From Escherichia phage Ec_Makalu_003, in the sequence record MN882349.1: 64,000 nt of DNA. One strand, 5' to 3'. The notes beneath the pieces were generated by a model. It saw nothing but the letters and a program-made list of their open reading frames with translations, searched no databases and had not been told where the DNA came from. This document shows, one piece after another, positions 817-62,113 of the stretch. The position numbers and the translations under genes are program-made. Every line of letters begins with the position of its first letter. The first letter of the stretch is position 1.

Positions 817-2058
817 ATGACTCATATTTTTACTGAACTGTTGCGGGAATCTACTTCCTCAGTAGCTAACCAGACAGCGCGACCGCAACTATTATCATTA
901 ACTCGCGCGGTAAACAACCTGATTTTCTCTGATCTGGTAGCAATCCAGCCAACGGATCAACCAGTATCTGCATTGTACGGACTACGTTATCTTAATCATG
1001 ATGGTCAGATGACTTTCCGAACTGCTGCAACCTACGGTGGCGCGGTTGGTGATCGCACAGAGATTGAAGAGTTTTCAAAAGAAAAATCTTATGAAGAAGG
1101 CGCACTATTCAAATCAGGCGATGTTGTATACGAAGTTGTGACCGCTGGTACAGTCGGTGAAGATGCCGCAACTCCAGAAGCTGCGATCTTTAAAGGCGTA
1201 ATGACAAACAAAATTCGTTTCTATAGCGATTGTGCATCGGTAGAATACTTTGAAGATAAAAACACCGAAATTGCGTCTACCTCTATGCAGTTTGACAAGT
1301 GGCAAGTTAATGTAGGTTCTCGTAAACTGAAAACCTCGTTCACCACTGAATTAATGCAGGATCTTGAGGCAAGCCAAATCAACTCTGAAAACTCTGTAAT
1401 TGATCTTCTGGCTACTGTTGCTTCCGAAGAGATCAACAAAGATATTATTCAGAAGTTGATCACTGTATCATCTCGCTATAAAATTAAAGGGATCACCCCT
1501 GATGGCGTACTTTCTCTCGTTAGCGTTCAGGATGCACCAACACAAGCGCGTGAACTTTACCGCTATGCTTGCGAGATGAGCAATCAAATGTTGCGGACTT
1601 CCTCCTTTGCTGGTACATACGTTTTGGCGTCTTCTCGCGTGGTTGGCCTCCTGCAATCTTCCGGTTGGATGGAAGAAACCGACAATGCTCTAAGCGAAGG
1701 TCGTCTACGTTGCGGTCTGGAAGTTTACGCAGACACGACAACACCTTTCGATTATATGCTCGTTGGTTGCAAGCACATGATCGGTGATATGGAGAGTGTC
1801 GGTTCTCTGTTCTACTCCCCATACACAGAAGCCGACGGCGCTGGCGCGTATAAGAGCGTAATTGACCCTAATAGCTTCCAGCATCATGTAGCTATTATGA
1901 ATCGTTATTCACTCTCTGTCAACCCATACACATCAAAAGTTGATCAGGAAGAACACCAGGTCATCAAGGGTGACGATTGGGGTAAAATGGCTGGACGTTC
2001 AGAAATGTCCTACATTTTAGGAATCGAACTGCCACCACTTGAGATTGACAACGCTTAA
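817..2058 (+). CDS. 24: head vertex protein gp24
   Basis: Alignable to T4 gp24 (ELLRES N-terminus, NPYT..K C-terminal motif); ATG at 817 with AGGA RBS; the track ORF begins at an upstream TTG. Confidence 0.9.
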   Translation: MTHIFTELLRESTSSVANQTARPQLLSLTRAVNNLIFSDLVAIQPTDQPVSALYGLRYLNHDGQMTFRTAATYGGAVGDRTEIEEFSKEKSYEEGALFKSGDVVYEVVTAGTVGEDAATPEAAIFKGVMTNKIRFYSDCASVEYFEDKNTEIASTSMQFDKWQVNVGSRKLKTSFTTELMQDLEASQINSENSVIDLLATVASEEINKDIIQKLITVSSRYKIKGITPDGVLSLVSVQDAPTQARELYRYACEMSNQMLRTSSFAGTYVLASSRVVGLLQSSGWMEETDNALSEGRLRCGLEVYADTTTPFDYMLVGCKHMIGDMESVGSLFYSPYTEADGAGAYKSVIDPNSFQHHVAIMNRYSLSVNPYTSKVDQEEHQVIKGDDWGKMAGRSEMSYILGIELPPLEIDNA

Positions 2059-2646
2059 CTAAATATCTAACCAAGACAAGTCAGATCCGCCCAAGATTTT
2101 TTCGACGGCGGATCTATTTTCTTGATGATATAAGTTAAAACATGGTATCCCATGTCTACGGGCAACATAAACAGCAATTCGAGTTCCTCCCGAAACGATT
2201 CCATTAACTTCTTTCGCCCAGAATATCACACAATCTACAGGGTCATCAAGTGTCTCACCTAAGACTTGAGCAACATTTCTAGAAAACAGATTTTGCATGT
2301 ATAACGGTATAGATCGAGGATTATCATAAACGTGTTCTAATTCATCCATCGCCAGATTTTTTTGTTCTAAGGTTTGCCATGCAATCACATCATGACCGTT
2401 ATGCTTATGGTCGTAAAACTTCCAATTTGGAATGAAAATTTTTCTATAATCTGGATCGTAATACTTCATGAAAGCATTGTCCATACCGTAAGCCCCTCCA
2501 GAATGCGCTACAACGCGATTTTCTGACAATACCCTCCCAATGGTACTAGCCATTATCAAAATGTCGCTAGGCGCTTTTCTAGAGCCTATTAAAGCACATC
2601 TACGAAGTGGTTTTACTCCAAATAGATCTTGTAACTGGTCAAACAT
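2059..2646 (-). CDS. SLOG / DprA(Smf)-like Rossmann-fold protein
   Basis: 195 aa; motifs HSGGAYGMD and SGGTRIAVYVARRHGIPCF resemble the DprA/LOG-type SLOG nucleotide-binding fold; sits where T4 has rnlB. Confidence 0.55.
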   Translation of the reverse strand: MFDQLQDLFGVKPLRRCALIGSRKAPSDILIMASTIGRVLSENRVVAHSGGAYGMDNAFMKYYDPDYRKIFIPNWKFYDHKHNGHDVIAWQTLEQKNLAMDELEHVYDNPRSIPLYMQNLFSRNVAQVLGETLDDPVDCVIFWAKEVNGIVSGGTRIAVYVARRHGIPCFNLYHQENRSAVEKILGGSDLSWLDI

Positions 2647-2766
2647 AATATTTCCTCCATAGAAAGCAATATCATACTACAAGTTAATAACAAATACAAG
2701 TATCCGCGTAGCGGAAGCGAGCACAGCGAGCAATAAAACACTTCCAGTAATTGATTAATAAATGTT

Positions 2767-2830
2767 CGAAACAAATTTTTATTATTCTATAAGATAAGTC
2801 TTCGTTTTGATCATAATTTAATCATACATG
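2767..2830 (-). repeat. copy a of a roughly 60 nt intergenic element
   Basis: GATTAAATTATGATCAAAACGAAGA...TAGAATAATAAAAATTTGTTTCG on minus strand; see copies at 2916-2978 and 52631-52688. Confidence 0.6.
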
Positions 2831-2915
2831 TAAAAACGACACAAAAGGATATCGCTTCGCGAACTCCTACGGAGTATAACATTTGTGTTACATTATGTGG
2901 TGATTAATAATTAAT

Positions 2916-2978
2916 CAAAGATACATTTTCTATGTTCTAAAGATCTTTCTTCGTTTTGATCATAATTTAATCAAACAG
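2916..2978 (-). repeat. copy b of the intergenic element (contains AAAGATCTTT palindrome)
   Basis: Minus-strand reading GATTAAATTATGATCAAAACGAAGAAAGATCTTTAGAACATAGAAAATG, 24 nt identical to copy c. Confidence 0.6.
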
Positions 2979-3026
2979 TATTAATATTGTCCATATGTAA
3001 ACTAAAATTATGTCAGTAATAGATAC

Positions 3027-3052
3027 AAAAAAAGCCGCCCCGAAGGACGGCT
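3027..3052 (-). terminator. rho-independent terminator (UUCG loop) for minus-strand transcripts
   Basis: AGCCGTCC-UUCG-GGGCGGCU hairpin then U-run when read on minus strand. Confidence 0.6.
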
Positions 3053-3060
3053 AATGTTAA

Positions 3061-3498
3061 TTATTTGTTGATAACGATCTGATTTCGGCGAATGGTGACA
3101 TTGCTCTTAGAGATGACCAGATCATCCGGCACTACGTTAGTTTTGTATGGTTGGAAGCGAACAAGCATCTGATTGCGTTTAGACCCTTCCTTAATCTTGA
3201 TTTCCATCTGGATATTGTTGCCTACGTGAGCAACCGCAATTTCACCTTTATTCTCATAGACCCACTTGCTGGTAACGTCTCCCGCAAAAGCCTTAATAAC
3301 TTGCAATGCTTCGTCGTATGCGGTAGAGCTGTGAACTTTCAGAAGGCCAGCCGTAGCAAGACGGGAGCAGGTGATCGCCGGAGATTGCCAAACATCAACA
3401 TTAATTTGCTCAATCAGAGTAACACCGCCCTGATCAACTGCTTTGAATGCTTCGAACATTGCCTTTTTCATTGCTACGTGGTTTTTACGGAATTTCAT
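3061..3498 (-). CDS. hypothetical protein (145 aa)
   Basis: Intact ORF with RBS in T4-like gene context. Confidence 0.6.
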   Translation of the reverse strand: MKFRKNHVAMKKAMFEAFKAVDQGGVTLIEQINVDVWQSPAITCSRLATAGLLKVHSSTAYDEALQVIKAFAGDVTSKWVYENKGEIAVAHVGNNIQMEIKIKEGSKRNQMLVRFQPYKTNVVPDDLVISKSNVTIRRNQIVINK

Positions 3499-3544
3499 AA
3501 TTAGTCACCTCTATTGATTAGTTATTCAGAATATTAATTACAAA

Positions 3545-3820
3545 TCAGGACATTGCCCGTTTGAATGCGTCCATTATAACAGTGTTATTTGGCTTGTCAA
3601 CACGTTTTTGAACTTTATTTTTAAATTTTTTGTTTATGTGGTGTTTACGATAAACAACCTTTTCACGGCTGGCGTAAGCCTCGCGTGCATCTTTTACCAT
3701 CAACCATGCCTTAGCCGCATCTTGTCCGCTGATCCCGCCAATCTTCTTAGCAATATCAACAAAATTAAGACCGTGATCTTCGCGTAGCATGTAAACCATT
3801 AACGCTGTTTTCTTGTCCAT
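3545..3820 (-). CDS. hypothetical protein, possible helix-turn-helix DNA-binding protein
   Basis: 91 aa, basic C-terminus, segment LNFVDIAKKIGGISGQDAAKAW looks HTH-like. Confidence 0.5.
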   Translation of the reverse strand: MDKKTALMVYMLREDHGLNFVDIAKKIGGISGQDAAKAWLMVKDAREAYASREKVVYRKHHINKKFKNKVQKRVDKPNNTVIMDAFKRAMS

Positions 3821-4017
3821 TACTTCGCCTCATTGACGATTAACAGGATAGTGATCAGTACCGGAAACTGGATCATGACAGTACCAATAAACCGGATAAA
3901 CGCATTTTCTGACTTCCACACATGACATGCGACTAGCTGATAGACCATTGTTGCAACCAAAGCCAGAAAATACATCTCGATTGGCGTTTCTTTGATCAAT
4001 CGTACAATCTCATTCAT
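3820..4017 (-). CDS. small membrane protein (two predicted TM helices)
   Basis: 65 aa, two hydrophobic stretches, GAGGTG RBS. Confidence 0.55.
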   Translation of the reverse strand: MNEIVRLIKETPIEMYFLALVATMVYQLVACHVWKSENAFIRFIGTVMIQFPVLITILLIVNEAK

Positions 4018-4025
4018 ACTTCACC

Positions 4026-4097
4026 TCATACATTCATAAACACAACAACGAATAGGACAGTAACAGTTATTAAAGCCATTTTCAACCCCATATTCAT
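4026..4097 (-). CDS. possible 23-aa hydrophobic micro-ORF in the leader
   Basis: MNMGLKMALITVTVLFVVVFMNV with GAGG RBS, stop overlaps the RBS of the next gene; could be leader only. Confidence 0.3.
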   Translation of the reverse strand: MNMGLKMALITVTVLFVVVFMNV

Positions 4098-4143
4098 AAT
4101 ATTTTCTTCGCCTCACGATGACAGTAGCATGTCGATGCGTGCC

Positions 4144-4171
4144 ATTATAGGCATCTAAATCGCTCTGTCAA
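4144..4171 (-). promoter_or_regulatory. sigma70-like early promoter (TTGACA, 16 bp, TATAAT)
   Basis: Minus strand TTGACA-16 bp-TATAAT. Confidence 0.55.
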
Positions 4172-4181
4172 GCACAAAAAC

Positions 4182-4207
4182 AAAAAAGCCACCCCGAAGG
4201 ATGGCTG
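4182..4207 (-). terminator. rho-independent terminator (UUCG loop) downstream of hoc
   Basis: AGCCAUCC-UUCG-GGGUGGCU hairpin then U-run on minus strand. Confidence 0.65.
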
Positions 4208-19985: not shown

Positions 19986-20021
19986 TTGATACTCCTTAGT
20001 AGTTCGTTTCGGTATGGGTGT

Positions 20022-20050
20022 ATTATGATATACACCCTCTGTTATGTCAA
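20022..20050 (-). promoter_or_regulatory. early promoter cassette (TTGACA-17-CATAAT)
   Basis: Minus strand -35/-10 with conserved leader ACCCATACCGAAACGAAC and GGAG RBS. Confidence 0.65.
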
Positions 20051-20056
20051 CAACTT

Positions 20057-20236
20057 TTAGAACATTTTTGAAATTAATTCTGCTTTGATTTCGCAGAGAA
20101 CATCTAAAGATTTCTCGTCACCCGCTTTTGCTGCTTCTGCTTGCATTTTTGAAATGGCTTCAATGTCAGTGCAATTATAAGCCGCTTGAACTTTAGCGAT
20201 TGCGATGATTGCCGATTCGATGGTTAAGTGTTTCAT
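20057..20236 (-). CDS. small hypothetical protein (59 aa)
   Basis: ATG with AGGAGAATCAA RBS behind a promoter cassette. Confidence 0.5.
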   Translation of the reverse strand: MKHLTIESAIIAIAKVQAAYNCTDIEAISKMQAEAAKAGDEKSLDVLCEIKAELISKMF

Positions 20237-20268
20237 GTTTGATTCTCCTTTCGTTTCGGTATGTGTGC

Positions 20269-20297
20269 AGTATAGGGGATCGCCGATCCCCTGTCAA
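20269..20297 (-). promoter_or_regulatory. early promoter cassette with palindromic spacer GGGGATCGCCGATCCCC
   Basis: TTGACA-17 bp palindrome-TATACT on minus strand. Confidence 0.7.
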
Positions 20298-20304
20298 CAA
20301 CTTT

Positions 20305-20823
20305 TTAGTTATTTTTTAATTGCTCATCTTGCAATAATGCAATCACATGCTGGCGATGTTCTTCCGATTGAGGAACACCGAAAAAGTTTGTTTTGTAGAA
20401 ATACTCTAATCGGTCTTCTCGTGTGCTCTCTTCCATCATGATCGCGGGTAGTCCAAGATTTCGGAAACGTCGCTTTTCTGCTGGCGTAAAATCACTGTAA
20501 TACAACATAGAATCATCATTACCAGCAATGCTAAACTCATCCTTCATAAAGGAGAATATTGCGTTTAAACGCTGTTTACCGTCCACGATTTCGATCTCAT
20601 AGCGAGAGCCATCATCAATCTTAGCCATTGCGATAGCACCAACCGGAAAATCATTAATCAGGTTTTCGATAAACATACGTTTGTTTTCGGTGTCCCATAC
20701 CAAAGGACGCTGATAATCTGGGTTCATGTTGATATAGCCATCTTCTAACCACGCCTCATAAACAGAGATGACAAAGTTTTTAGTATTGGTATAGTAACGG
20801 CGTTTAGGCGTTAAACGGTTCAT
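20305..20823 (-). CDS. DUF262 (ParB/Srx-fold, GmrSD N-terminal-like) protein
   Basis: DYQRPLVWD...EIVDGKQRLNAI resembles the DUF262 motif (DGQQR); ATG at 20823 with AGGAG RBS. Confidence 0.6.
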   Translation of the reverse strand: MNRLTPKRRYYTNTKNFVISVYEAWLEDGYINMNPDYQRPLVWDTENKRMFIENLINDFPVGAIAMAKIDDGSRYEIEIVDGKQRLNAIFSFMKDEFSIAGNDDSMLYYSDFTPAEKRRFRNLGLPAIMMEESTREDRLEYFYKTNFFGVPQSEEHRQHVIALLQDEQLKNN

Positions 20824-20824
20824 G

Positions 20825-21157
20825 TTATAGTCTCCTGAATGGATCATCACGTAAATCAATATCTTTTAAGAACTCATCCCATGAATGGCGGATAATGTTC
20901 TTAATTCTCCAGATAAGCGCAGGGATTGAACGCTCTCCCATCTGGAAGTAAGGATCATATGATCCATATGCCCAATATGCTACTACAATTCCACAATCGG
21001 CGCAATAATATTCTATTTCACTTGCTGGCGACCAAAGTCCATCAATATGATCACGGATCTTGCTTTCGATGTTATGGCTATGGCAATCAGGGCAACGGAT
21101 GCAATGACCTTGTTTATCGTAATTTGACGTTAGCGAATACTTAAACAATCTCATCAT
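20825..21157 (-). CDS. Cys/His-rich zinc-finger protein, possible HNH-like nuclease
   Basis: CIRCPDCHSHN...RDHIDG...CADCG: two CxxC pairs flanking His/Asp residues. Confidence 0.45.
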   Translation of the reverse strand: MMRLFKYSLTSNYDKQGHCIRCPDCHSHNIESKIRDHIDGLWSPASEIEYYCADCGIVVAYWAYGSYDPYFQMGERSIPALIWRIKNIIRHSWDEFLKDIDLRDDPFRRL

Positions 21158-21870
21158 AGATCCTTATTGGCTTCAAATACTGCCTTTGCGAATCCTCGCG
21201 GGGTAAGTGACCTGATAGTCTTTGTTCTGGTTCCTTTCCCGCCTAGCTTAGAATGCTGTTTACTGTACCCTTTATTAATCTGCAACGGTTTCTTTTCTGG
21301 CATTATAAAGCCTTGTCCGGTCCATAAGCAAGTCTTTTTCGGGTACATATCACGGGCGGCAATATACTCAGGAAACGTAGGATGCTTATCATCTTCCGGC
21401 AAATAACCGCCATATTCCCACGGATGGAACATGTAATCAGGCTTACGCCACATGCTAGAGATAACGCTTACAGGATTCTCTATCATGTAGGGAACTCCTA
21501 GCCATTCACCCAAATAAGCGGTTATTTTAGCTGCCCTTACATCATGAACTTGAATTAATGGTCCTTGTTCTCGTTTCTTTCGTTCAAAGTGCGCAGCGCC
21601 ACTAACAGCTAAATTGGTGCATGGTGGGAATGCAAAGATAATATCCGGTTTCCCCCATTCAAGGTCCATTGCTCTTTCCAGCCAATTTAAATCAATCCAT
21701 GTGTTTACATATGTAATGTTTGGATGTTCAAATCTGGTATTATATTTTTTGTATGTACCGTGGTCGCCATCGTCAGCATTAAAGCAGATCACCTTATGAC
21801 CTGCTTTAGCCCATTCTAACCCCATTATCCCCGATCCGTCAAAGTTGCAGAATATTAATTTTTGTTTCAT
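21154..21870 (-). CDS. DNA (cytosine-5)-methyltransferase-like protein (compact, 238 aa)
   Basis: Motif I-like LIFCNFDGSGIMG, motif IV-like FAFPPCTNLAVSG (PC catalytic dipeptide), motif VI-like MIENP, C-terminal FAKAVF. Confidence 0.55.
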   Translation of the reverse strand: MKQKLIFCNFDGSGIMGLEWAKAGHKVICFNADDGDHGTYKKYNTRFEHPNITYVNTWIDLNWLERAMDLEWGKPDIIFAFPPCTNLAVSGAAHFERKKREQGPLIQVHDVRAAKITAYLGEWLGVPYMIENPVSVISSMWRKPDYMFHPWEYGGYLPEDDKHPTFPEYIAARDMYPKKTCLWTGQGFIMPEKKPLQINKGYSKQHSKLGGKGTRTKTIRSLTPRGFAKAVFEANKDL

Positions 21871-22112
21871 ATACGCCCCTTTAACCCAACACAGATTTTA
21901 GAAGGTTCTTTGCCGTGCCACATTAAGTAAATTCCGTTAATGCGTCCTTGTTTTGTATATGATTCTTTTCTGATCTTCTTATAGTGTCGTGCTTCCTCAG
22001 CCGATTGTTTAGAATGTCGATCATAAAGGAAGAGGAACAAAGGCCAACCATTAGCGGCCTTAATGCAGTTATTCAAAAATTCCTTATTTCGTTTAATTAA
22101 TTTTCTTTTCAC
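21867..22112 (-). CDS. hypothetical basic protein (81 aa)
   Basis: GTG start overlapping the upstream stop; lysine/arginine rich. Confidence 0.45.
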   Translation of the reverse strand: MKRKLIKRNKEFLNNCIKAANGWPLFLFLYDRHSKQSAEEARHYKKIRKESYTKQGRINGIYLMWHGKEPSKICVGLKGRI

Positions 22113-22360
22113 GCTGCCCCCATTGGTTTGATAGTAACAGAATCTAAAAGACCTTTGTTAGCCAGTTCGCGGCAAGTTTTCAGATCCGCAACTTCCCAGC
22201 CAGCCGCAATAAGGTTATCAATGAGGCTGTTAGCAACTTCTTCGCTCATGAAAGAGCACTGTTTGCCGATGGTGTAGCGTACACGCTGTAATTTCAGTTT
22301 ACGGAAGCCTTTAACGTTCAGGTCTTTAGCGATTTTCTTTGCGGTTTCGATGTTAGCCAT
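22109..22360 (-). CDS. hypothetical protein (83 aa)
   Basis: First gene behind the promoter cassette at 22401-22429. Confidence 0.6.
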   Translation of the reverse strand: MANIETAKKIAKDLNVKGFRKLKLQRVRYTIGKQCSFMSEEVANSLIDNLIAAGWEVADLKTCRELANKGLLDSVTIKPMGAA

Positions 22361-22400
22361 TGTTTGATTCTCCTAAGTGGTATCTCGTCTTGATGGTTGT

Positions 22401-22429
22401 ATTGTAGGGGAGTTATCCTCCCCTGTCAA
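22401..22429 (-). promoter_or_regulatory. early promoter cassette with palindromic spacer GGGGAGGATAACTCCCC
   Basis: TTGACA-17-TACAAT on minus strand. Confidence 0.65.
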
Positions 22430-22443
22430 CACTTTTTATAAAA

Positions 22444-22611
22444 TTATTTGTTAATTTCTGGTGCGTTGCTAGGATAGTAACCTTCTTTAACTCCGAGGTA
22501 TTTTGCAACCATCCCTACAATCTTCTGTGCTACTACAATGTCAAATTTCAGATAATCTTCGCCGTGGGTTTCAATGATATATGCTTCACATGCTGCTTTA
22601 GTCTCGAACAT
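22444..22611 (-). CDS. small hypothetical protein (55 aa), copy 1 of a duplicated gene
   Basis: MFETKAACEAYIIETHGEDYLKFDIVVAQK..., about 87 percent aa identity to 25726-25893. Confidence 0.6.
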   Translation of the reverse strand: MFETKAACEAYIIETHGEDYLKFDIVVAQKIVGMVAKYLGVKEGYYPSNAPEINK

Positions 22612-22644
22612 TTTGATTCTCCTATTTCGTTTCGGTATGTGTGT

Positions 22645-22673
22645 ATTATAGGGGATCTCCCGATCCCCGTCAA
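22645..22673 (-). promoter_or_regulatory. early promoter cassette (TTGACG, GGGGATC-containing spacer, TATAAT)
   Basis: Same cassette type as 20269-20297. Confidence 0.65.
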
Positions 22674-22687
22674 CAACTTTTTTAAAA

Positions 22688-22969
22688 TTATTCGTGATTA
22701 GTTTCGATATTGTGCATTTTGCACCAGTTCAGCCAATCGCCAAGATCTTGATAGTTGATGCTTTTATCTGCTGCCATCGTTTTTGTCTTGATACCCATAT
22801 GTGCGTTATGAGTAAGCATTTTTACAGTGAACTCAATTTTATCGCCTTTAGCTTTAACATCAACCAGTTTGGTCCACTGGCTACCAGCACCGCGAATGTT
22901 CATACCAACGATGTTTCCGATGTATGCTTCTTTGTTGTTCAGGATTTCGGTTGCTTTGATGAATTTCAT
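22688..22969 (-). CDS. hypothetical protein (93 aa)
   Basis: ORF with RBS behind promoter cassette. Confidence 0.6.
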   Translation of the reverse strand: MKFIKATEILNNKEAYIGNIVGMNIRGAGSQWTKLVDVKAKGDKIEFTVKMLTHNAHMGIKTKTMAADKSINYQDLGDWLNWCKMHNIETNHE

Positions 22970-23002
22970 TTTTGATTCTCCAGTTCGTTTCGGTATGGGT
23001 GT

Positions 23003-23031
23003 ATTATGCTATGTTCTTACTTTGGTGTCAA
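23003..23031 (-). promoter_or_regulatory. early promoter cassette (TTGACA-17-CATAAT)
   Basis: Minus-strand consensus elements plus conserved leader. Confidence 0.65.
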
Positions 23032-23039
23032 CAACTTTT

Positions 23040-23309
23040 TTAGATATTTTCAGAAATAAATTTTAAAACTTGACGTAAATGTTTCTCATCTTTGATAGTC
23101 GCCGGAAGTTCTTCTTTTACTTCCTGTGCAAGATAGATATTTCCGTTCCAAGTGAAAGACCCGTCTTCGTTTACGCGATAGCTGAACATCCATTCGCAAT
23201 CATTTTCGATTTCATATACACACAGAAGGGTGTAATCTTCAAAGCTATTGATTTCAAGGTCGAAGCCGTGGCGTTTTGCAAAGTTGGTAGTGGTTTTAGT
23301 CAGTGCCAT
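23040..23309 (-). CDS. hypothetical protein (89 aa)
   Basis: ORF with GGAGAATCAA RBS. Confidence 0.6.
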   Translation of the reverse strand: MALTKTTTNFAKRHGFDLEINSFEDYTLLCVYEIENDCEWMFSYRVNEDGSFTWNGNIYLAQEVKEELPATIKDEKHLRQVLKFISENI

Positions 23310-23349
23310 TGTTTGATTCTCCTAAGTGGTATCTCGTTTCGATGGGTGT

Positions 23350-23378
23350 ATTATGCTATAGGCGTGATCAGGTGTCAA
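23350..23378 (-). promoter_or_regulatory. early promoter cassette (TTGACA-17-CATAAT)
   Basis: Minus-strand consensus elements. Confidence 0.65.
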
Positions 23379-23435
23379 TGCCTTTTTTAAAATTTTATGC
23401 AATAAAAAAGCCGACACTAAGGTCGGCTAATAAAA

Positions 23436-23744
23436 TCATTTAGACAAATAATCATTCAGTGCAATCCGGTCGGCATGTTCCGGCGTTACATCAATCGCAA
23501 TCACTTTAACGCGTGCTTTCTTGCGACCTGGGTTTTCTCGTAACCAGTGCTCATGACCGTGAACATTTTTATACTGCGATGCTTCTTCGAAGGTACGGAT
23601 CGGACCAGGGTAATCAGCGTAAAGGATCTCTAGGTCATCGGTGATGTAAAAATATACGTTGTAATTACTGTTCTCTAGCTTAAGCAGAGACTTTCGGAAC
23701 ATTGGGAGATTTTCGCGGGTAAATTCAAAAGTAATATCTTTCAT
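23436..23744 (-). CDS. small protein, member 1 of HxHW paralog family
   Basis: Start at MKDITFEF with GAGGA RBS; motifs VYFYITDD...HGHEHW...VIAIDV. Confidence 0.6.
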   Translation of the reverse strand: MKDITFEFTRENLPMFRKSLLKLENSNYNVYFYITDDLEILYADYPGPIRTFEEASQYKNVHGHEHWLRENPGRKKARVKVIAIDVTPEHADRIALNDYLSK

Positions 23745-23793
23745 AGTATTATCCTCAATAGTTGGATGAAAAGGGGGCTTAACGCCCCATATA

Positions 23794-24081
23794 TTAAAAC
23801 AGTCCTTCCTGTACACCGTAGTAGAGTTCGTCGCTGATAATTTCATTAATGCGACGGTGTGCATATTCCTGATTTGCGAAGTTGTCAGCAAGTTCTACTT
23901 TAGTTTCACCGTCATGAGTCCATTTAGTGATAACTTTACCATCTGCAAATTTGAAGTTGAACTCTTTAGCTACTGCATCGCGTACCAGACGTGCGAACTT
24001 GTTGTTACGGATTGCATTATCGGTTTCGTGTGCAGCGTGAGCAAATTTGTTAACTTTCAGAGTGATAGTGATGTATGCCAT
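23794..24081 (-). CDS. hypothetical protein (95 aa)
   Basis: ORF with AGGAGAATCAA RBS behind promoter cassette. Confidence 0.6.
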   Translation of the reverse strand: MAYITITLKVNKFAHAAHETDNAIRNNKFARLVRDAVAKEFNFKFADGKVITKWTHDGETKVELADNFANQEYAHRRINEIISDELYYGVQEGLF

Positions 24082-24127
24082 AATTTGATTCTCCTAGTTA
24101 GAAAGTGTATCTCGTTTCGATGGGTGT

Positions 24128-24156
24128 ATTATGCTATACACCCGATCTTATGTCAA
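24128..24156 (-). promoter_or_regulatory. early promoter cassette (TTGACA-17-CATAAT)
   Basis: Minus-strand consensus elements. Confidence 0.65.
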
Positions 24157-24163
24157 CACTTTT

Positions 24164-24442
24164 TTATAAAATAATTTTTTGATATTTTTCTATGATGTTT
24201 GTGTAATCCACATCAACCGCTATCACCGTTGCTTCGAATCCACCGTTTAGCCAATGGCTATGGTCATGATCGTGAAAGAAACCAAGACCAGTACGAAGAC
24301 CTTCTTTATATTCGGCGCGTACATTTAGATCATCATCGATAAACAGATAAAACCATGAATTTTTACTAGGATTGATGATACAACCTTTCAGATTAGGGAG
24401 AATATCACGACTAAGAATAAACTTATCACCTACTTTGAACAT
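24164..24442 (-). CDS. small protein, member 2 of HxHW paralog family
   Basis: Start MFKVGDKF with GAGGA RBS; motifs FYLFIDDD...HDHSHW...VIAVDV. Confidence 0.6.
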   Translation of the reverse strand: MFKVGDKFILSRDILPNLKGCIINPSKNSWFYLFIDDDLNVRAEYKEGLRTGLGFFHDHDHSHWLNGGFEATVIAVDVDYTNIIEKYQKIIL

Positions 24443-24446
24443 AATA

Positions 24447-24767
24447 TTAGTCCTCACTTATAAGGTCAAACCAATTGTTTTTCGCATAATGCTTAATGCG
24501 TGCTTGATCTGCTTCCGCTGGTGATAGATTCCATGCAACCACTACAACTTCTGACGCGTCGTCATCCGTTTCTGATACCCAATGATTGTGATTCATACAG
24601 TTATTTGCGATCGAGTGAGCAAATGATTTCATCACTGGAGACGTATAATCATAGTAACGGATTTTCAGATTTTCATCAACATACAAGTAGATCGTATAAG
24701 GTTTATATTCAGTAACCAGTAACAGACAGTTACGCAATTCTGGGAAAATCTTTTTAGTTAATTTCAT
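24447..24767 (-). CDS. small protein, member 3 of HxHW paralog family
   Basis: Start MKLTKKIF with GAGGAT RBS; motifs IYLYVDEN...NHNHW...VVVVAWN. Confidence 0.55.
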   Translation of the reverse strand: MKLTKKIFPELRNCLLLVTEYKPYTIYLYVDENLKIRYYDYTSPVMKSFAHSIANNCMNHNHWVSETDDDASEVVVVAWNLSPAEADQARIKHYAKNNWFDLISED

Positions 24768-24768
24768 T

Positions 24769-24987
24769 TTATAATCCTCGGTCGCGGCTATAGTACACGG
24801 TACGCCATACAATTTCATGTTTCGTGTCGCTCCAGCACACGATCTCATTTACTCTTAAATCTTTGTTATCAACAAAAGATGAACATTGTGACGCTTCTTT
24901 CATCATTTTATCTGCTGTTTTCTCATCAAATACAGCACAGATTTCTTTATACACTCGATAATCTTTGAATTGACTCTGGATACCCAT
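24769..24987 (-). CDS. small hypothetical protein, tandem paralog of 24947-25204
   Basis: SQFKDYRVYKEICAVFDEKTADKMMKEASQC versus SKFKDYKAYQQILRVYDAEFAEKMMEDASKC. Confidence 0.5.
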   Translation of the reverse strand: MGIQSQFKDYRVYKEICAVFDEKTADKMMKEASQCSSFVDNKDLRVNEIVCWSDTKHEIVWRTVYYSRDRGL

Positions 24988-25204
24988 AATTAACACCATT
25001 CCAACCAATTGTTTTTGAGAAAACGTTTATCCACTGTTGAGTGTAGCATGTTTCTTTCCATGATACAATACGAGTAGAATAATGGTTTTTGTTTCCAGAA
25101 AAGGACGGGCATTTTGATGCATCTTCCATCATCTTTTCGGCGAACTCCGCGTCATATACCCGCAGGATCTGTTGATATGCTTTATAATCTTTAAATTTGC
25201 TCAT
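24947..25204 (-). CDS. small hypothetical protein, tandem paralog of 24769-24987
   Basis: 85 aa ORF; 3' end overlaps the start of its paralog. Confidence 0.5.
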   Translation of the reverse strand: MSKFKDYKAYQQILRVYDAEFAEKMMEDASKCPSFSGNKNHYSTRIVSWKETCYTQQWINVFSKTIGWNGVNYGYPESIQRLSSV

Positions 25205-25469
25205 AATTGTTAACTACCTTATCAGCTTCTTTTATTGTTTTTACATCAACTGCGATAATCCGTAAAGGTTCGTCGAAGGTCCACCAGTGGTCATGAATAT
25301 CAGCTTGTGATTTATCACCAAAGGAATCACGAATATCATTTTTACATTTATAGCTAATATGGCCTTCATAGTCAACATAAAGGTAATTATCGAAAATCGG
25401 AGTTTTTAAGATCATACCGAAAAATCTTTCTTTGTGTGTCTTATCAAGTGTTGCAGTAATTCGCATCAT
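25191..25469 (-). CDS. small protein, member 4 of HxHW paralog family
   Basis: AAGAGGA RBS; motifs YLYVDYEG...IHDHWW...IIAVDV. Confidence 0.6.
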   Translation of the reverse strand: MMRITATLDKTHKERFFGMILKTPIFDNYLYVDYEGHISYKCKNDIRDSFGDKSQADIHDHWWTFDEPLRIIAVDVKTIKEADKVVNNYEQI

Positions 25470-25481
25470 AATATATTCCTC

Positions 25482-25661
25482 TTAGAAAGGGATGGTCATT
25501 TCTTGAGCTTGTACATTCTCGTTAGGATTAAACTTCATCCAACCGATATTGTCTACCAGCATATGTACATTTTTATCATATCCTACGTGAGTAGTCAACA
25601 CTAAATGTGCTTTACCTTCAACGATGATTTCCATGTACTTCTGAACTTCGATAGCTTTCAT
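25482..25661 (-). CDS. small hypothetical protein (59 aa)
   Basis: ATG with GGAGAATCAA RBS behind promoter cassette 25694-25722. Confidence 0.5.
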   Translation of the reverse strand: MKAIEVQKYMEIIVEGKAHLVLTTHVGYDKNVHMLVDNIGWMKFNPNENVQAQEMTIPF

Positions 25662-25693
25662 TTTGATTCTCCGTTTGTTGTCTTGATGGGAGT

Positions 25694-25722
25694 ATCTTAC
25701 TACTCCCTTTAATCATTGTCAA
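25694..25722 (-). promoter_or_regulatory. early promoter cassette (TTGACA-17-TAAGAT)
   Basis: Minus-strand elements; spacer contains GGGAGTAG...ACTCCC-like palindrome. Confidence 0.6.
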
Positions 25723-25725
25723 CTA

Positions 25726-25893
25726 TTATTTGTTAATTTCTGGTGCGTTGCTCGGATAGTAACCTTCTTTAACACCCAGATATTTTGCAACCATTCCGGT
25801 GATCTTCTGTGCTACTACGATATCGAATTTCAGGTAGTCTTCACCGTGGTTTGCTACAATGTATGCTTCGCATTCTGCTTTAGTCTGGAACAT
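25726..25893 (-). CDS. small hypothetical protein (55 aa), copy 2 of a duplicated gene
   Basis: MFQTKAECEAYIVANHGEDYLKFDIVVAQK...; about 85 percent nt identity with 22444-22611. Confidence 0.6.
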   Translation of the reverse strand: MFQTKAECEAYIVANHGEDYLKFDIVVAQKITGMVAKYLGVKEGYYPSNAPEINK

Positions 25894-25927
25894 TTTTGAT
25901 TCTCCTATATCTCGTTGGTATGTGTGC

Positions 25928-25956
25928 ATTATAGGGGATCACCGATCCCCTGTCAA
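25928..25956 (-). promoter_or_regulatory. early promoter cassette with palindromic spacer GGGGATCACCGATCCCC
   Basis: TTGACA-17-TATAAT on minus strand. Confidence 0.7.
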
Positions 25957-25961
25957 CAACT

Positions 25962-26255
25962 TTATAATGCTTTATACGCGTATTTCATAAATTTGTCTGC
26001 CACTTCATTGGCATGTTCAGATTCTACGCCTGATTCGAGAACAATAGCTAGGTCGGTTTCGTCATTCCCGCCGTACCAATGATTTGATGTTCGATTTTTT
26101 TCAATTGGAAATTGGTCACTTTTATCTGTGCGACAAAATACATCTAAATGCTCGTCGATGTAAAAGATCCAATCTTCATAAAGAATAACGGTATTAGCAA
26201 GATTTTTATTGCCTTCAACGAAAGGTTCCGCGACAAATAGCTTAGTTTGTTCCAT
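25962..26255 (-). CDS. small protein, member 5 of HxHW paralog family (divergent)
   Basis: Start MEQTKLF with GAGGAA RBS; motifs IFYIDEHLD...SNHWYG...AIVLESGV. Confidence 0.5.
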   Translation of the reverse strand: MEQTKLFVAEPFVEGNKNLANTVILYEDWIFYIDEHLDVFCRTDKSDQFPIEKNRTSNHWYGGNDETDLAIVLESGVESEHANEVADKFMKYAYKAL

Positions 26256-26271
26256 AGTAATTTCCTCAAAA

Positions 26272-26463
26272 TTATACAGTTTCGTAAACTTCCCAATGTT
26301 CAGCGCCAACACGCTTAACGAAAAGGTTTTCTTTGATGTTATTCATAAACGTCTGGATGGATTTAATGCGGTTTGAAGGTTTCCATTCTTCGTTGGCATT
26401 GCGTCGATACATCATAACATTACCAGTTCGCTTATATTCAGCAACCATTTTAAGACCACACAT
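26272..26463 (-). CDS. hypothetical protein (63 aa)
   Basis: ATG with GAGGATAAT RBS. Confidence 0.55.
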   Translation of the reverse strand: MCGLKMVAEYKRTGNVMMYRRNANEEWKPSNRIKSIQTFMNNIKENLFVKRVGAEHWEVYETV

Positions 26464-26520
26464 AATATTATCCTCAATTTGTGGGAGAGTATTACCCCTC
26501 CCAATGATTGTTATGTTATA

Positions 26521-26841
26521 TCACACAAAATGGCGTGTCAATGCTTCTTTTGCGGTTCCGCTAAGACTTTCAATCTCGCCTGGCATAACATCAACCGCCA
26601 GAACTTCTACAACATCTTCGGACCCTAACCAGTGAGTATGGCCTTTGTAGAACTTGATAACCAGACCACCTTCCTCGTCCCATTTAACGCTATCGCTAGC
26701 CCACCACACATCACCGTCGATAAAGTTGATGTAAAGCACACTACGCCACATTGAATTAATTACTTTCAATACTGCGCCTTTCATCTCTTCCACGGTATGG
26801 TCTTCCATTTTGAAGACCTCACCTACCTGAACTTTTGCCAT
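26521..26841 (-). CDS. small protein, member 6 of HxHW paralog family
   Basis: Motifs LYINFIDGD...GHTHW...VLAVDV. Confidence 0.6.
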   Translation of the reverse strand: MAKVQVGEVFKMEDHTVEEMKGAVLKVINSMWRSVLYINFIDGDVWWASDSVKWDEEGGLVIKFYKGHTHWLGSEDVVEVLAVDVMPGEIESLSGTAKEALTRHFV

Positions 26842-26858
26842 TTAGTCACCTCTCTTTA

Positions 26859-27038
26859 TTACATAACAATCACGCCAGCCGTTGAAAGTTGATGTTTCAA
26901 CTGAGCATTTTCTGCTACTGTCAAATCAATGATTTCTTGTGACGCTGCAATCATATAACCATTGGTGATATTGTTTTGCATCAGTTCAATGGTTTCTTCG
27001 TTGTAGCGGATTTTAGCGATGATTTCGTTGAAGTTCAT
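26859..27038 (-). CDS. small hypothetical protein (59 aa)
   Basis: Start MNFNEIIAK with AGGAGAATCAA RBS; the track ORF start lies in the translated leader. Confidence 0.55.
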   Translation of the reverse strand: MNFNEIIAKIRYNEETIELMQNNITNGYMIAASQEIIDLTVAENAQLKHQLSTAGVIVM

Positions 27039-27072
27039 AATTGATTCTCCTAGTTCGTTTCGGTATGTGTGC

Positions 27073-27101
27073 AGTATAGGGGATCGCCGATCCCCTGTCA
27101 A
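27073..27101 (-). promoter_or_regulatory. early promoter cassette with palindromic spacer GGGGATCGCCGATCCCC
   Basis: TTGACA-17-TATACT on minus strand; near-identical to the cassette at 20269-20297. Confidence 0.7.
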
Positions 27102-27114
27102 CAACTTTTTTGAA

Positions 27115-27591
27115 TTATTTTTCTTGATGCTCGCGCTCGTACTTTTCGAAATAAAATTCTACTGGCTGATCGTGGATTGAAAGCAAGCCAAAGCGTTTAG
27201 CCGCACGTAATCCCATGTTACGTTGAATGTACTTCTGGAAGTTCTCGCGTATACACTTACGCCAGTATTCTAAGCCCATACAGCTTTTGTAAAGATTGCA
27301 TTGCACACAAGCCGGATTCATGTTGTCAAGTATATCGTGCTCCGGTTTATGCATTCCTACAACCTTATACTTCCACGATCCATCATCATTACGGGCAATT
27401 CGTCCATTTTCATCATAGACTACTTTTGAGCGTCGCAATACTGGTTTGATGTGGTCTGCGTGCCAGCGATCCCCTAGTTCCTCGCCACAATAGGCACAAC
27501 GCCCACCGTATTTCATTTTCAGGATCTGGCGTTGCTCTTTCTTTGACAATTTTTTAGGTTTAGGGGCTTTCGCCCCTTCATTATCACACAT
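27115..27591 (-). CDS. HNH endonuclease
   Basis: CAYCG...HADHIKP...NMNPACVQCN: canonical HNH CxxC / H-x-DH / N / CxxC arrangement; start overlaps the ligase stop. Confidence 0.8.
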   Translation of the reverse strand: MCDNEGAKAPKPKKLSKKEQRQILKMKYGGRCAYCGEELGDRWHADHIKPVLRRSKVVYDENGRIARNDDGSWKYKVVGMHKPEHDILDNMNPACVQCNLYKSCMGLEYWRKCIRENFQKYIQRNMGLRAAKRFGLLSIHDQPVEFYFEKYEREHQEK

Positions 27592-34896: not shown

Positions 34897-34938
34897 CTTG
34901 ATACTCCTTAGTAAGTTAGTTTCGTTTCGATGGGGGGT

Positions 34939-34967
34939 ATATTACTACTCCCGTGATATGCTGTCAA
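34939..34967 (-). promoter_or_regulatory. early promoter cassette (TTGACA-17-TAATAT)
   Basis: Minus-strand elements, GGGAGTAG palindromic spacer. Confidence 0.6.
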
Positions 34968-34975
34968 TTGCTTTT

Positions 34976-35125
34976 TTATGCAACCGCAAACATCAACATT
35001 TGAACATTCTTGGCTGTCTGGCTTTCAAAGTTCTGACATTCTTTGATAATGTCCTCTACTTTCTCGCCAGAGATCTCCGCGTAAGTTTCGATTGCCATTT
35101 TCAGTACCGCGTCAAAGTTGTTCAT
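34976..35125 (-). CDS. small hypothetical protein (49 aa)
   Basis: ATG with AAGGAGAACCAA RBS behind promoter cassette. Confidence 0.4.
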   Translation of the reverse strand: MNNFDAVLKMAIETYAEISGEKVEDIIKECQNFESQTAKNVQMLMFAVA

Positions 35126-35163
35126 TTGGTTCTCCTTAAAGTGTATTTCGTTTCGATGGGGGT

Positions 35164-35192
35164 ATATTACTACCCCCGTTATTCAGTGTCAA
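35164..35192 (-). promoter_or_regulatory. early promoter cassette (TTGACA-17-TAATAT)
   Basis: Minus-strand elements. Confidence 0.6.
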
Positions 35193-35411
35193 CTACTTTT
35201 TAATGACAAGTTCGAATTTTGCTACCTTGCGTCCTCGTTTATTGAAAGCAACCCACGGACGGTTTTCAATGTAGAACAATTCTTCACCAATAATGAATAT
35301 TGGCTGATTGTAAAGGCGACCCATCAGGTCACGTTGGCGAATAGTAGTAGATTCGTATACTTCGCCTACTACAAAGTGTTTGCTGATAGAGTCGGTGCAA
35401 GTAAATTTCAT
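35193..35411 (-). CDS. hypothetical protein (72 aa)
   Basis: ORF with AGGAGAATCAA RBS. Confidence 0.55.
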   Translation of the reverse strand: MKFTCTDSISKHFVVGEVYESTTIRQRDLMGRLYNQPIFIIGEELFYIENRPWVAFNKRGRKVAKFELVIKK

Positions 35412-35444
35412 TTTGATTCTCCTTTGTTTCGTTTCGATGGGAGT

Positions 35445-35473
35445 ATCTTACAACTCCCAATATTCAGTGTCAA
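35445..35473 (-). promoter_or_regulatory. early promoter cassette (TTGACA-17-TAAGAT)
   Basis: Minus-strand elements. Confidence 0.6.
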
Positions 35474-35480
35474 CTGCTTT

Positions 35481-35699
35481 TTACTTGTTGTATTCATTCC
35501 ACCAACGAGTAAGTTTATCGATTATTTTTGTGTTTCTATCCAATTTCTCCCACCGTTTACGCGGGTTTATAAGCCGGAATAGGTAGGGTGTACTTGTTAA
35601 GTGAACTCGGTCAAAATAATGGTTGATAAGCTGGCATTCAATTCTCAATTTCATCTTTTTACGATGAAAATATGCAATCACTTGTTCTTCTGTTTCCAT
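35481..35699 (-). CDS. hypothetical protein (72 aa)
   Basis: ORF with GGAGGAAC RBS. Confidence 0.55.
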   Translation of the reverse strand: METEEQVIAYFHRKKMKLRIECQLINHYFDRVHLTSTPYLFRLINPRKRWEKLDRNTKIIDKLTRWWNEYNK

Positions 35700-35723
35700 A
35701 TGTTCCTCCGTTTCGATGCGTGC

Positions 35724-35752
35724 ATTATGCTATACCCCGGTCCGATTGTCAA
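35724..35752 (-). promoter_or_regulatory. early promoter cassette (TTGACA-17-CATAAT)
   Basis: Minus-strand elements. Confidence 0.6.
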
Positions 35753-35799
35753 CACCCAATAACAAAAAAGTCGCCACTATGGGCGACTTAGGTTAAACA

Positions 35800-52582: not shown

Positions 52583-52592
52583 CATTTTTAAC

Positions 52593-52624
52593 AAGCCGAT
52601 CCATGTGGTCGGCTTTATTTTTAT
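52593..52624 (+). terminator. rho-independent terminator after gene 35
   Basis: AGCCGATC...GGTCGGCT hairpin then T-run; same hairpin reused inverted at 62735-62762. Confidence 0.65.
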
Positions 52625-52630
52625 ACAGTT

Positions 52631-52688
52631 GGTTAAATTGTAACCAAAACGAAGAAAGATCTTTAGAATAATAGAAAATTTGTTTCGG
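52631..52688 (+). repeat. copy c of the roughly 60 nt intergenic element (inverted relative to copies a and b)
   Basis: GGTTAAATTGTAACCAAAACGAAGAAAGATCTTTAGAATAATAGAAAATTTGTTTCGG. Confidence 0.6.
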
Positions 52689-52743
52689 TTAAAAATTAGA
52701 CAGTGCCGTAGGCACGTCGCGAAGCGATATTTTGTTAACATTC

Positions 52744-52751
52744 TATAAATA
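52744..52751 (+). promoter_or_regulatory. late promoter TATAAATA for gene 36
   Basis: Exact TATAAATA 34 bp upstream of the ATG at 52785. Confidence 0.7.
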
Positions 52752-60858: not shown

Positions 60859-60892
60859 AATATATTCCTCAATGTCTTGTCTTGATGGGAGT

Positions 60893-60921
60893 ATCTTACT
60901 ACTCCCTTAATCCGGTGTCAA
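60893..60921 (-). promoter_or_regulatory. early promoter cassette (TTGACA-17-TAAGAT)
   Basis: Minus-strand elements upstream of the DUF1311 gene. Confidence 0.6.
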
Positions 60922-60928
60922 CTACTTT

Positions 60929-61084: not shown

Positions 61085-61153
61085 TTTGATTCTCCATCGT
61101 TGTCTTGATGAGTTTAGTATAGGGGATCACCGATCCCCTGTCAACAACTATTT

Positions 61154-61366: not shown

Positions 61367-61435
61367 GTGATTCTCCTTCTTTCGTTTCGGTGTGGGAGTA
61401 TGTTAATACTCCCGTTTCTTTACATCAACCAGTTT

Positions 61436-62109: not shown

Positions 62110-62113
62110 ATTA

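Follow-up and report, generated by a model that had tools for sequence, protein, structure and literature searches.

A repeated non-coding cassette common to RB49-like coliphages and an Escherichia coli prophage, a possible replication-start signal

A repeated unit in gene-free DNA of a Krischvirus

The DNA analysed here, called the window throughout, is a stretch of 64,000 nucleotides from Escherichia phage Ec_Makalu_003 (MN882349.1), a Krischvirus genome of the RB49-like, T4-type "pseudo-T-even" coliphages. Between a DprA-like gene (2059-2646, minus strand) and an open reading frame (ORF) at 3061-3498 on the same strand, with gene 24 adjoining, lies a gap that holds two tandem copies (b and a) of a non-coding cassette, the subject of this report; a third copy (c) is located between the tail-fibre genes 35 and 36. 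Over positions 2000-4200 the window has 99.6% identity to Escherichia phage Ec_Makalu_002 and 95-99% to a further 55 Krischvirus genomes, RB49, phi1 and JSE among them. In the complete RB49 genome its counterpart spans about 94.7-161.0 kb.

The earlier note on this DNA, written from the letters alone, had described the gap as free of genes, and the comparison of genomes bears this out: the only mechanically listed ORF there (53 aa from a TTG start, 2613-2774) is interrupted in another Krischvirus (L138) by an indel of 1 nt. Because such 1-nt indels occur among the copies (a versus b and c; L138 versus the others), a coding role for the element was ruled out. The two tandem minus-strand copies and the single plus-strand copy were likewise found where the note had put them. 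A 25-nt core pattern matches at 2785-2809 (minus), 2934-2958 (minus) and 52645-52669 (plus) and nowhere else in the window; 0.04 matches were expected, and three were reached in none of 100 shuffles. A repeat search of the window returned a direct pair (D13; 77 nt, 73%) and two inverted pairs (I1 and I2; 70 and 46 nt, 74%).

The earlier note had also proposed a covariance-model search. A covariance model (CM) built from copies c and d of several genomes aligned the three window copies at full length, and by its matches the unit measures about 104-128 nt, not the roughly 60 nt first described. Two runs of 374-387 kb each, covering the window, most or all of RB49, the prophage region described below and metagenomic loci, gave no further copy below E = 3. 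The fourth copy of each genome, d, lies outside the window. The full units and the gap are as follows.

2647-3060 (414 bp), minus strand: non-coding gap with copies b and a in tandem at a 149-bp period, and with the two 80-bp windows of lowest duplex stability in the 64 kb
2698-2824, minus strand: copy a, full unit (CM score 48.8 bits, E 1.8e-6)
2846-2973, minus strand: copy b, full unit (63.2 bits, E 3e-9)
52630-52733, plus strand: copy c, full unit (129.3 bits)
RB49 62779-62881, minus strand: copy d, outside the window, between genes 2 and 3

With a 128-nt query, 231 places were found across 58 Krischvirus genomes of the phage collection, about four in each, so that the element is kept in all 58 genomes; a genome of 164 kb carries four copies at three dispersed loci. 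Between copies c and d the identity is 89% over 110 nt.

Anatomy of the cassette

We define the sense strand as the one that reads GATTAAAT... On this strand, the cassette (about 105-130 bp) consists of an 80-nt A+T-rich core, a variable spacer and then one or two perfect G+C-rich hairpins. The core contains two short inverted repeats, a conserved box at about -30 and a -10-like TAGAAT. The consensus of inverted repeat 1 is TTGRTTA-N5-TAAYCAA, which presumably resembles a Fis-site consensus. The box, CAAAACGAAGA, is invariant, and inverted repeat 2, (G)AAGA-N4-TCTT(T), varies only in its 4-nt centre; this invariant part (CAAAACGAAGA with AAGA-N4-TCTT) is a plausible candidate for a protein-binding site. 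The hexamer TAGAAT stands at a fixed place and reads TAGAAC in copy b.

The A+T-rich spacer of about 30-60 nt ends in TA(A/G)TCA. It is followed by hairpins with perfect stems of 4-7 bp and 3-nt loops, mostly of the form C-GNA-G (GCGAAGC). The stems differ between copies, while the sense-strand loop of the last hairpin is nearly always C-GAA-G. The two hairpins per element of the earlier note were found in copies b and c, and those that it quoted are exact (ACTCC-GTA-GGAGT in b, GTGCC-GTA-GGCAC in c); copy a has one only, and all other copies have two. The palindrome AAAGATCTTT, reported for copy b, occurs in copy c as well. After the hairpins most copies read GATAY, copy d reads GACAA and the prophage variant L041 reads CATATC. 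In copies c and d a T4-type late promoter comes 5-17 nt further on (TATAAATA in c, AATAAATA in d), followed by gene 36 and gene 3, respectively. The parts of the window copies are placed as follows.

2956-2974, minus strand: copy b, inverted repeat 1, TTGATTA-AATTA-TGATCAA
2948-2958, minus strand: copy b, box CAAAACGAAGA
2939-2952, minus strand: copy b, inverted repeat 2, GAAGA-AAGA-TCTTT
2934-2939, minus strand: copy b, -10-like TAGAAC, with the A+T-rich spacer next
2863-2875, minus strand: copy b, hairpin A, ACTCC-GTA-GGAGT
2852-2862, minus strand: copy b, hairpin B, TCGC-GAA-GCGA (includes GCGAAGC)
2808-2824, minus strand: copy a, inverted repeat 1
2799-2809, minus strand: copy a, box
2784-2789, minus strand: copy a, TAGAAT; the inverted repeat 2 region has one additional base
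2703-2715, minus strand: copy a, single hairpin, TCCGC-TAC-GCGGA, with the GTA loop on the other strand
52629-52647, plus strand: copy c, inverted repeat 1, TTGGTTA-AATTG-TAACCAA
52645-52655, plus strand: copy c, box
52651-52664, plus strand: copy c, inverted repeat 2
52664-52669, plus strand: copy c, TAGAAT, with the A+T-rich spacer next
52703-52715, plus strand: copy c, hairpin A, GTGCC-GTA-GGCAC; RB49 and most strains have the loop TAC here, phage LF73P4 has TCC
52717-52727, plus strand: copy c, hairpin B, TCGC-GAA-GCGA

A second home in an E. coli prophage

A 20-base pattern scan of IMG/VR returned Krischvirus contigs and, from isolate genomes and metagenomes, about 24 contigs with lengths of 17-45 kb. 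The latter all bear one near-identical sequence: TTGATTAAATCATCATCAAAACGAAGAAGTATCTTTAGAATATAAGAATC..., an A+T-rich spacer and two hairpins, GCAACC-GAA-GGTTGC followed by ATCCC-GAA-GGGAT, with CCGAAGG twice (the main prophage type). The carrier is a 37-kb prophage inserted in ycdX, found in 56-58 of 5426 complete E. coli genomes with one copy of the cassette; it encodes a serine recombinase, a lambda-type large terminase and siphovirus-like structural genes. Its copy is closest to copy b (82-85% over 59-77 nt). In the reciprocal blastn search, 1 kb of the prophage locus against all phage records had the Krischvirus copies as its sole matches (77-82% over about 65-84 nt). In a variant of the prophage (L041/L176) the hairpins are wholly different (GACGCTC-CCT-GAGCGTC and TGC-GAA-GCA), with form and GAA loop kept.

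Beyond these two homes the element was not found. Blastn against phages gave only the 58 Krischviruses, blastn against E. coli genomes only the ycdX prophage and blastn against plasmids nothing, and pattern scans of viral, metagenome and one-per-species bacterial genome collections gave the two families together with chance matches in coding DNA.

The prophage cassette stands within a gene-free region of 1.4 kb, about 450 bp from some ten iterons (TTTCAGGGGCAAAAAT). A 37-nt imperfect inverted repeat flanks the unit and overlaps a motif that is repeated elsewhere in that region. In E. coli NZ_CP098223.1 the region corresponds to L144 21136-22524, with the iterons at 21818-22006. It also holds three or four copies of TCTAGAATCATCTAGTAAC, at least six copies of TGAAAGGAnTT or its complement, several G+C-rich triloop hairpins and a consensus promoter (22074-22103) with operator-like GTGTAGG repeats. 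An uncharacterised temperate phage probably has its origin and immunity functions here; apart from the cassette the region has no match in phage records, and none among plasmids.

Genes, too, have been exchanged between the two phage groups. A tblastn comparison of the prophage with RB49 (M-start ORFs of at least 40 aa, E <= 0.01) showed that the prophage DEAD-box helicase (L145 5724-7214) is 80% identical in amino acids to RB49 UvsW and that the prophage tail fibre matches part of gp37 at 57% identity. Also common to both are a GIY-YIG domain and two small ORFs (the RB49p190 and p194 families, unknown in PHROGs), and no trans-acting protein common to both phages was found by this search beyond these. 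The sequence likeness speaks for an exchange of genes between two phages, one virulent and T4-type, the other temperate. The genes next to the cassette are unrelated between RB49 and the prophage. The helix-turn-helix candidate at 3545-3820, which the earlier note had suggested as a binding protein, turned out to be only a DUF2774/gp24.3 protein whose homologue is absent from the prophage that shares the element.

Selection on the cassette and the nature of its hairpins

Between these unrelated phages the core is 80-85% identical, and their shared helicase is 80% identical at the protein level. Since the core is as conserved as the helicase protein and neutral DNA would diverge far more, purifying selection is indicated. 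Within each orthologous copy the differences among genomes all fall in loops and spacers and none in stems or core; with the conserved core, this makes the selection visible. The hairpin stems have been replaced among K-b/c/d, the main prophage type and variant L041, yet the form and the GAA loop of hairpin B are kept; as this loop stays on the sense strand in both families, one strand matters. The cassette is a selected, non-coding, strand-asymmetric, cis-acting DNA element.

In an alignment of 26 distinct sequences, guided by the covariance model and hence fitted to it, 96.6% of the cells are paired, versus 36-57% when the partners are slid by 1-3 columns. Of the four base pairs in hairpin B, three have changed on both sides. 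So has one pair in inverted repeat 1; inverted repeat 2 is constant throughout. The earlier note had read such covariation as a conserved RNA structure or a protein-binding site. That the hairpins persist while their stems change was upheld, but the details speak more for DNA hairpins than for an RNA fold. All of the roughly 40 pairs in the stems of hairpins A and B are Watson-Crick, with zero G-U, and the loops are GAA or GTA closed by C-G, as in DNA mini-hairpins, among which GCGAAGC and CCGAAGG are "extraordinarily stable" motifs (PMC13037366). G+C-rich C-GNA-G hairpins number six in the 64 kb: five are in the cassette loci, and the remaining one is the terminator that precedes gene 24. The spacing between core and hairpins varies by about 25 nt.

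Folding of the sense strand was better than that of shuffled sequences for c, d and the prophage copy (z -2.5 to -3.7) and not significant for a and b. The antisense strand gave z values of -2.1 to -3.2; since both strands fold better than shuffles, folding does not discriminate RNA from DNA. A sense RNA is weakly supported by the one G-T pair, which copies a and b have in inverted repeat 1. Rfam returned no match in the whole window at gathering thresholds, and in E-value mode the prophage copy gave only chance-level matches (E >= 0.28, scores far under gathering).

Promoter-likeness, terminators and melting

A sigma-70 position weight matrix (PWM) was run on both strands of seven element variants and found no strong promoter consistent across the seven. 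The best consistent candidate, TxAxCA-17-TAGAAT on the sense strand, scores about 5 bits versus more than 12 for the early promoters of this phage. In it, TAGAAT lies 17 bp past T-A-CA hexamers and the box would fall at -31 to -21, like a MotA box; no MotA box is present in the element. RB49 has neither MotA nor middle-mode promoters (PMC1524935). A scan of RB49 for the combination of box and -10 hexamer found only the four cassette copies; with the box at only four sites in 164 kb, this is no promoter class. In the prophage variant L176 the hexamer reads TATAAT, a hint that it is read as a -10. An antisense promoter (TTGRTN-17-TATnAn) was excluded, as its spacing to the -10 varies among the prophage variants. 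Tandem promoters reportedly replace the middle-mode promoters in RB49 (Desplats et al. 2002).

In a scan for intrinsic terminators only hairpin B of copy c passed (followed by TATTTTGTT), and no U-tract follows the hairpins of copies a, b, d and the prophage. Nearest-neighbour energies put the starts of the two 80-bp windows with the lowest duplex stability in the 64 kb at 2746 and 2954, and copy c is in the top 2% of the window for duplex instability.

Recombination between copies

Copies c and d are mutually inverted, and phage LF73P4 (OZ035795.1) has both reciprocal hybrids of them (L179 151-270; L182 380-545). One runs from the gene 35 terminator through the element to gene 3, the other from gene 2/p130 through the element and a late promoter to gene 36. 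Their positions at about 56.8 and 141.4 kb point to a crossover within the A+T-rich part. By implication, about 84 kb is inverted in this one of the 58 Krischviruses, with an assembly choice as a possible alternative; each gene of LF73P4 retains its own late promoter, and the other 57 records have the usual gene order. No mosaic boundaries were found at the copies when this phage was compared with RB49, and neither terminal inverted repeats nor target duplications, the hallmarks of miniature inverted-repeat transposable elements (MITE) and insertion sequences (IS), were found around the Krischvirus copies. T4 origins reportedly coincide with recombination hot spots (Kreuzer and Alberts 1985).

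A metagenomic Krischvirus (3300045988_033703; L108 2690-2760, minus strand) departs from RB49 right after hairpin B of copy d, where an early-type promoter (TTGACA-N17-TAGATT) and extra DNA are inserted ahead of gene 3, which makes an indel junction of the cassette's 3' edge.

What the cassette may do

We tentatively favour, as possible rather than probable, the reading that the cassette is a replication-start or priming signal, built by analogy like the T4 origins oriF and oriG of about 100 bp. The minimal T4 origins comprise a promoter with a -30 box and an A+T-rich DNA unwinding element (DUE), and the R-loop formed there is later removed by the helicase UvsW (PMC3016281). In the cassette, the A+T-rich segment would be opened by the R-loop of a short transcript or by supercoiling, which would expose the sense strand. 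On it the C-GNA-G mini-hairpins, expected to resist nucleases and single-stranded DNA-binding protein (SSB), would fold and could mark or hold open the site for the loading of primase or helicase, as at the complementary-strand origin of G4 and at RSF1010 ssiA. Once open, the site could also serve to load the gp45 clamp for the late promoters after copies c and d.

Several observations fit a replication-start signal. A promoter-like element next to an easily melted segment matches the "promoter plus DUE" anatomy of T4 origins. Four copies at three loci in 164 kb, and a prophage copy near iterons, fit an origin in number and placement. The prophage has a UvsW homologue, and because UvsW unwinds origin R-loops we count this for the origin. 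Counted in its favour as well are hairpins of the DNA mini-hairpin type, stems that were replaced under a constant structure, the visible selection, and the recombination of copies c and d. A bolder version, which we consider somewhat unlikely, is that the cassette may be a portable origin or priming signal that has moved horizontally between virulent T4-type and temperate phages; it would supply the MotA-less "pseudo-T-even" phages with origins by means of mini-hairpins of the G4/RSF1010 type within a double-stranded genome, possibly with clamp loading for adjacent late promoters too.

A number of points weigh against an origin. Each functional step is something that we infer, and the covariation counts rest on about four independent lineages (K-a, K-b/c/d, the main prophage type and the prophage variant L041). 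The loop of hairpin A in copy c flips from GTA in the window to TAC in RB49 and most strains, and copy d of RB49 has AAA in place of GAA, so loop identity is not strict. The copies are not exactly at strand-switch points, A+T-richness is common in phage intergenic DNA, and the iteron region of the prophage is a presumed origin, with no plasmid homologue. The internal sigma-70 score is weak (as given above), and TAGAAC in copy b lacks the critical last T. We know of no activator; RB49 has no MotA, and the box is unused elsewhere in its genome.

Three other readings, and a remainder of other protein-binding roles, share the rest of our belief. It is rather unlikely, in our judgement, that the cassette is a factor-dependent promoter or operator at which RNA polymerase uses TAGAAT and a host or phage protein binds the box and the palindromes (TTGRTTA-N5-TAAYCAA, AAGA-N4-TCTT), giving pre-late transcription of gene 3, genes 36-38 or the DprA-like gene, or an RNA of about 55-60 nt that ends at the hairpins. 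Such a promoter would explain why the -10-like hexamer is fixed in all copies and becomes TATAAT in L176, three of the four Krischvirus copies point toward the next gene, and hairpin B of copy c with TATTTTGTT was flagged as terminator-like. The tandem promoters reported for RB49 and the presumed Fis-site likeness of inverted repeat 1 would fit it too. Yet the -35 is weak, the total score is far under that of real early promoters, copy b has TAGAAC, and the box is confined to its four sites. Moreover, the genes that follow have unrelated functions, c and d come with late promoters of their own, the sense direction in the prophage runs into 1.2 kb of non-coding DNA, and the hairpins of a, b, d and the prophage have no U-tract. 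We regard as improbable a structured RNA on read-through late transcripts, whether a processing or stability element (an A/U-rich RNase E target with protective 5' hairpins) or a small regulatory or anti-defence RNA. The sense strand of c, d and the prophage copy outfolds shuffles, inverted repeat 1 (hairpin 1) retains, in a and b, a U-G pair whose counterpart on the opposite strand would be C-A, compensatory changes are seen in hairpin 1 and in hairpin B, and the element is common to unrelated phages of one host. Against such an RNA, the antisense strand folds about equally, the sense strand of a and b is not significant, no Rfam family matches, G-U pairs are absent from hairpins A and B, the loop of hairpin A changes strand and the spacing varies. 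Intrinsic terminators immediately precede copies b and c, placing the element directly behind strong terminators, no consistent promoter is there to make the RNA, and stems of 4-5 bp with triloops are marginal for RNA.

A passenger repeat, that is, a mobile or recombination-spread cassette (PeSL-like) with no dedicated role, whose similarity reflects recent transfer and gene conversion and which serves mainly as a substrate for rearrangement, also seems improbable. Genes have been exchanged between the two phage groups, c and d are nearly alike and have recombined in the LF73P4 inversion, an insertion abuts the 3' edge of copy d in L108, and the prophage unit is flanked by its 37-nt inverted repeat. 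But the core is as similar between the phages as their shared helicase is at the protein level, variation avoids core and stems, and swapped hairpins keep their form and GAA loop. In addition, about four copies are kept in all 58 genomes, no mosaic breakpoints lie at the copies, and the Krischvirus copies have neither flanking inverted repeats nor target duplications. Several further resemblances were dropped on inspection: Tus/Ter, dif, the DnaA box, oriC 13-mers, an IHF site and ToxI-like antitoxin repeats; a mimic of the type I-F CRISPR repeat, whose loop is flipped in other strains; the P1 c4 RNA, which Rfam did not find; and a lambda-type cos, as T4-type phages package by headful.

If the origin reading is true, a single recognisable four-copy cassette would make origin function in the RB49 group directly testable. 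If it is a promoter or an RNA instead, the cassette would still be a regulatory signal not described before, placed ahead of the tail-fibre genes, the DprA-like gene and the sheath-stabiliser gene. In either case it is an example of a selected non-coding element common to a virulent and a temperate phage of one host, and repeats of 105 bp can invert half of a T4-type genome with all transcription units intact.

Neighbouring features and other observations

The terminators and the late promoter next to the copies are not part of the cassette and are placed as follows.

3033-3052, minus strand: intrinsic terminator of ORF 3061-3498, bounding the a/b locus, outside the repeat
52593-52615, plus strand: intrinsic terminator of gene 35, directly 5' of copy c
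52744-52751, plus strand: T4-type late promoter TATAAATA of gene 36 (ATG 52785), 17 nt past hairpin B; a neighbour of the cassette

The late-promoter consensus used for gene 36 is that of PMC1524935. Beside copy d of RB49, on the opposite strand, is RB49p130 (L003 12937-13191, plus strand), an 84-aa coiled-coil-like ORF with its own Shine-Dalgarno sequence and a weak Pfam match to DUF7615 under the cut-off. It bears its own late-promoter motif, AATAAATA, so copy d is flanked by two divergent late promoters.

Upstream of gene 24, positions 743-779 hold a terminator (GGAATCC-TTC-GGATTCC with a T-run) and then the late promoter TATAAATA (772-779) of that gene, whose true start is ATG 817 and not the mechanically listed TTG 769. 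Terminator hairpins form a small repeat family of their own (AAAAAAGCCGnCC...GG) at 52588-52622, 62733-62767, 3025-3046, 4179-4200 and 23401-23422, and the gene 35 terminator is 86% complementary to a terminator 10 kb off. Within genes 36/37, identity to RB49 drops from about 98% to 52-85% at 53950-54100 and 54550-55850, as expected of the host-range hypervariable segment of the distal tail fibre. A 172-nt direct repeat of 86% identity (22443-22614 and 25725-25896, 3.3 kb apart) stands in the early hyperplastic region, and its copies cross-match RB49 at 117.2 and 121.5 kb.

Comparison with known systems

The element is not mentioned in the PeSL papers (PMC2839356, PMC4122927), in the five-genome comparison (PMC1524935), or in PMC3016281 and PMC13037366; the T4 replication review describes no origins for RB49-like phages (PMC3016281). 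PeSL cassettes combine a near-consensus TTGACA-N17-TATAAT promoter with a Gn-loop-Cn stem-loop in hyperplastic regions (PMC2839356, PMC4122927). Like those of RB49 and phi1 (Arbiol 2010, Comeau 2014), the present cassette is a repeated intergenic stem-loop unit and a recombination substrate. Unlike them, it has no such promoter, carries other hairpins and is sited among late genes, and so differs from the PeSL definition. PeSL elements proper do occur in the window: repeat families D1-D5 and D7 (20003-27126, 34931-35766, 60864-62730) contain many minus-strand early promoters with TTGACA-N17-TATAAT, a G-rich/C-rich stem-loop between or over the hexamers (e.g. GGGGATCGGCGATCCCC) and then a conserved leader (...ACCGAAACGA), which are the known RB49/phi1 cassettes.

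With the early promoters of phage N4 the cassette shares a stem of 5-7 bp under a C-G-closed GNA loop of 3 nt, extrudable from supercoiled DNA, but neither cassette phage encodes an N4-type virion RNA polymerase: the window has no giant ORF (the largest, 1246 aa, is gp34), none is annotated in RB49 and none was found in the prophage. The motifs GCGAAGC and CCGAAGG are known from G4 oric, RSF1010 ssiA and N4 promoters, and single-strand initiation signals carry GCGAAGC, CCGAAGG or GCGAAAGC in their mini-hairpins (PMC13037366). GCGAAGC was found in copies b and c, in copy d of some strains and in variant L041, and CCGAAGG in the main prophage type. By description, the cassette is thus like the signals of G4 and RSF1010 (ssiA/ssiB) in its strand-specific short hairpins with GCGAAGC or CCGAAGG, and the prophage copy is further like RSF1010 in having hairpins beside iterons and an A+T-rich region. 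The G4 and RSF1010 signals differ from it: a dedicated primase (DnaG or RepB') serves them on single-stranded templates, and those of the G4 type have three longer hairpins.

To T4 oriF (uvsY) and oriG (gene 34) the likeness is one of layout: about 100 bp of non-coding DNA with a -10-like hexamer and a box near -30, followed by an A+T-rich unwinding element; several dispersed sites per T4-type genome (five or more in T4); the presence of UvsW; and a link to recombination. The cassette has no sequence similarity to them, no MotA box and no MotA gene in its phage, its terminal mini-hairpins are not described for oriF/oriG, and its copies form one family, whereas T4 origins have no motif common to one another (PMC3016281). 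By sequence, then, the cassette belongs to no known family, and by design it is a variant on known kinds of phage cis-element.

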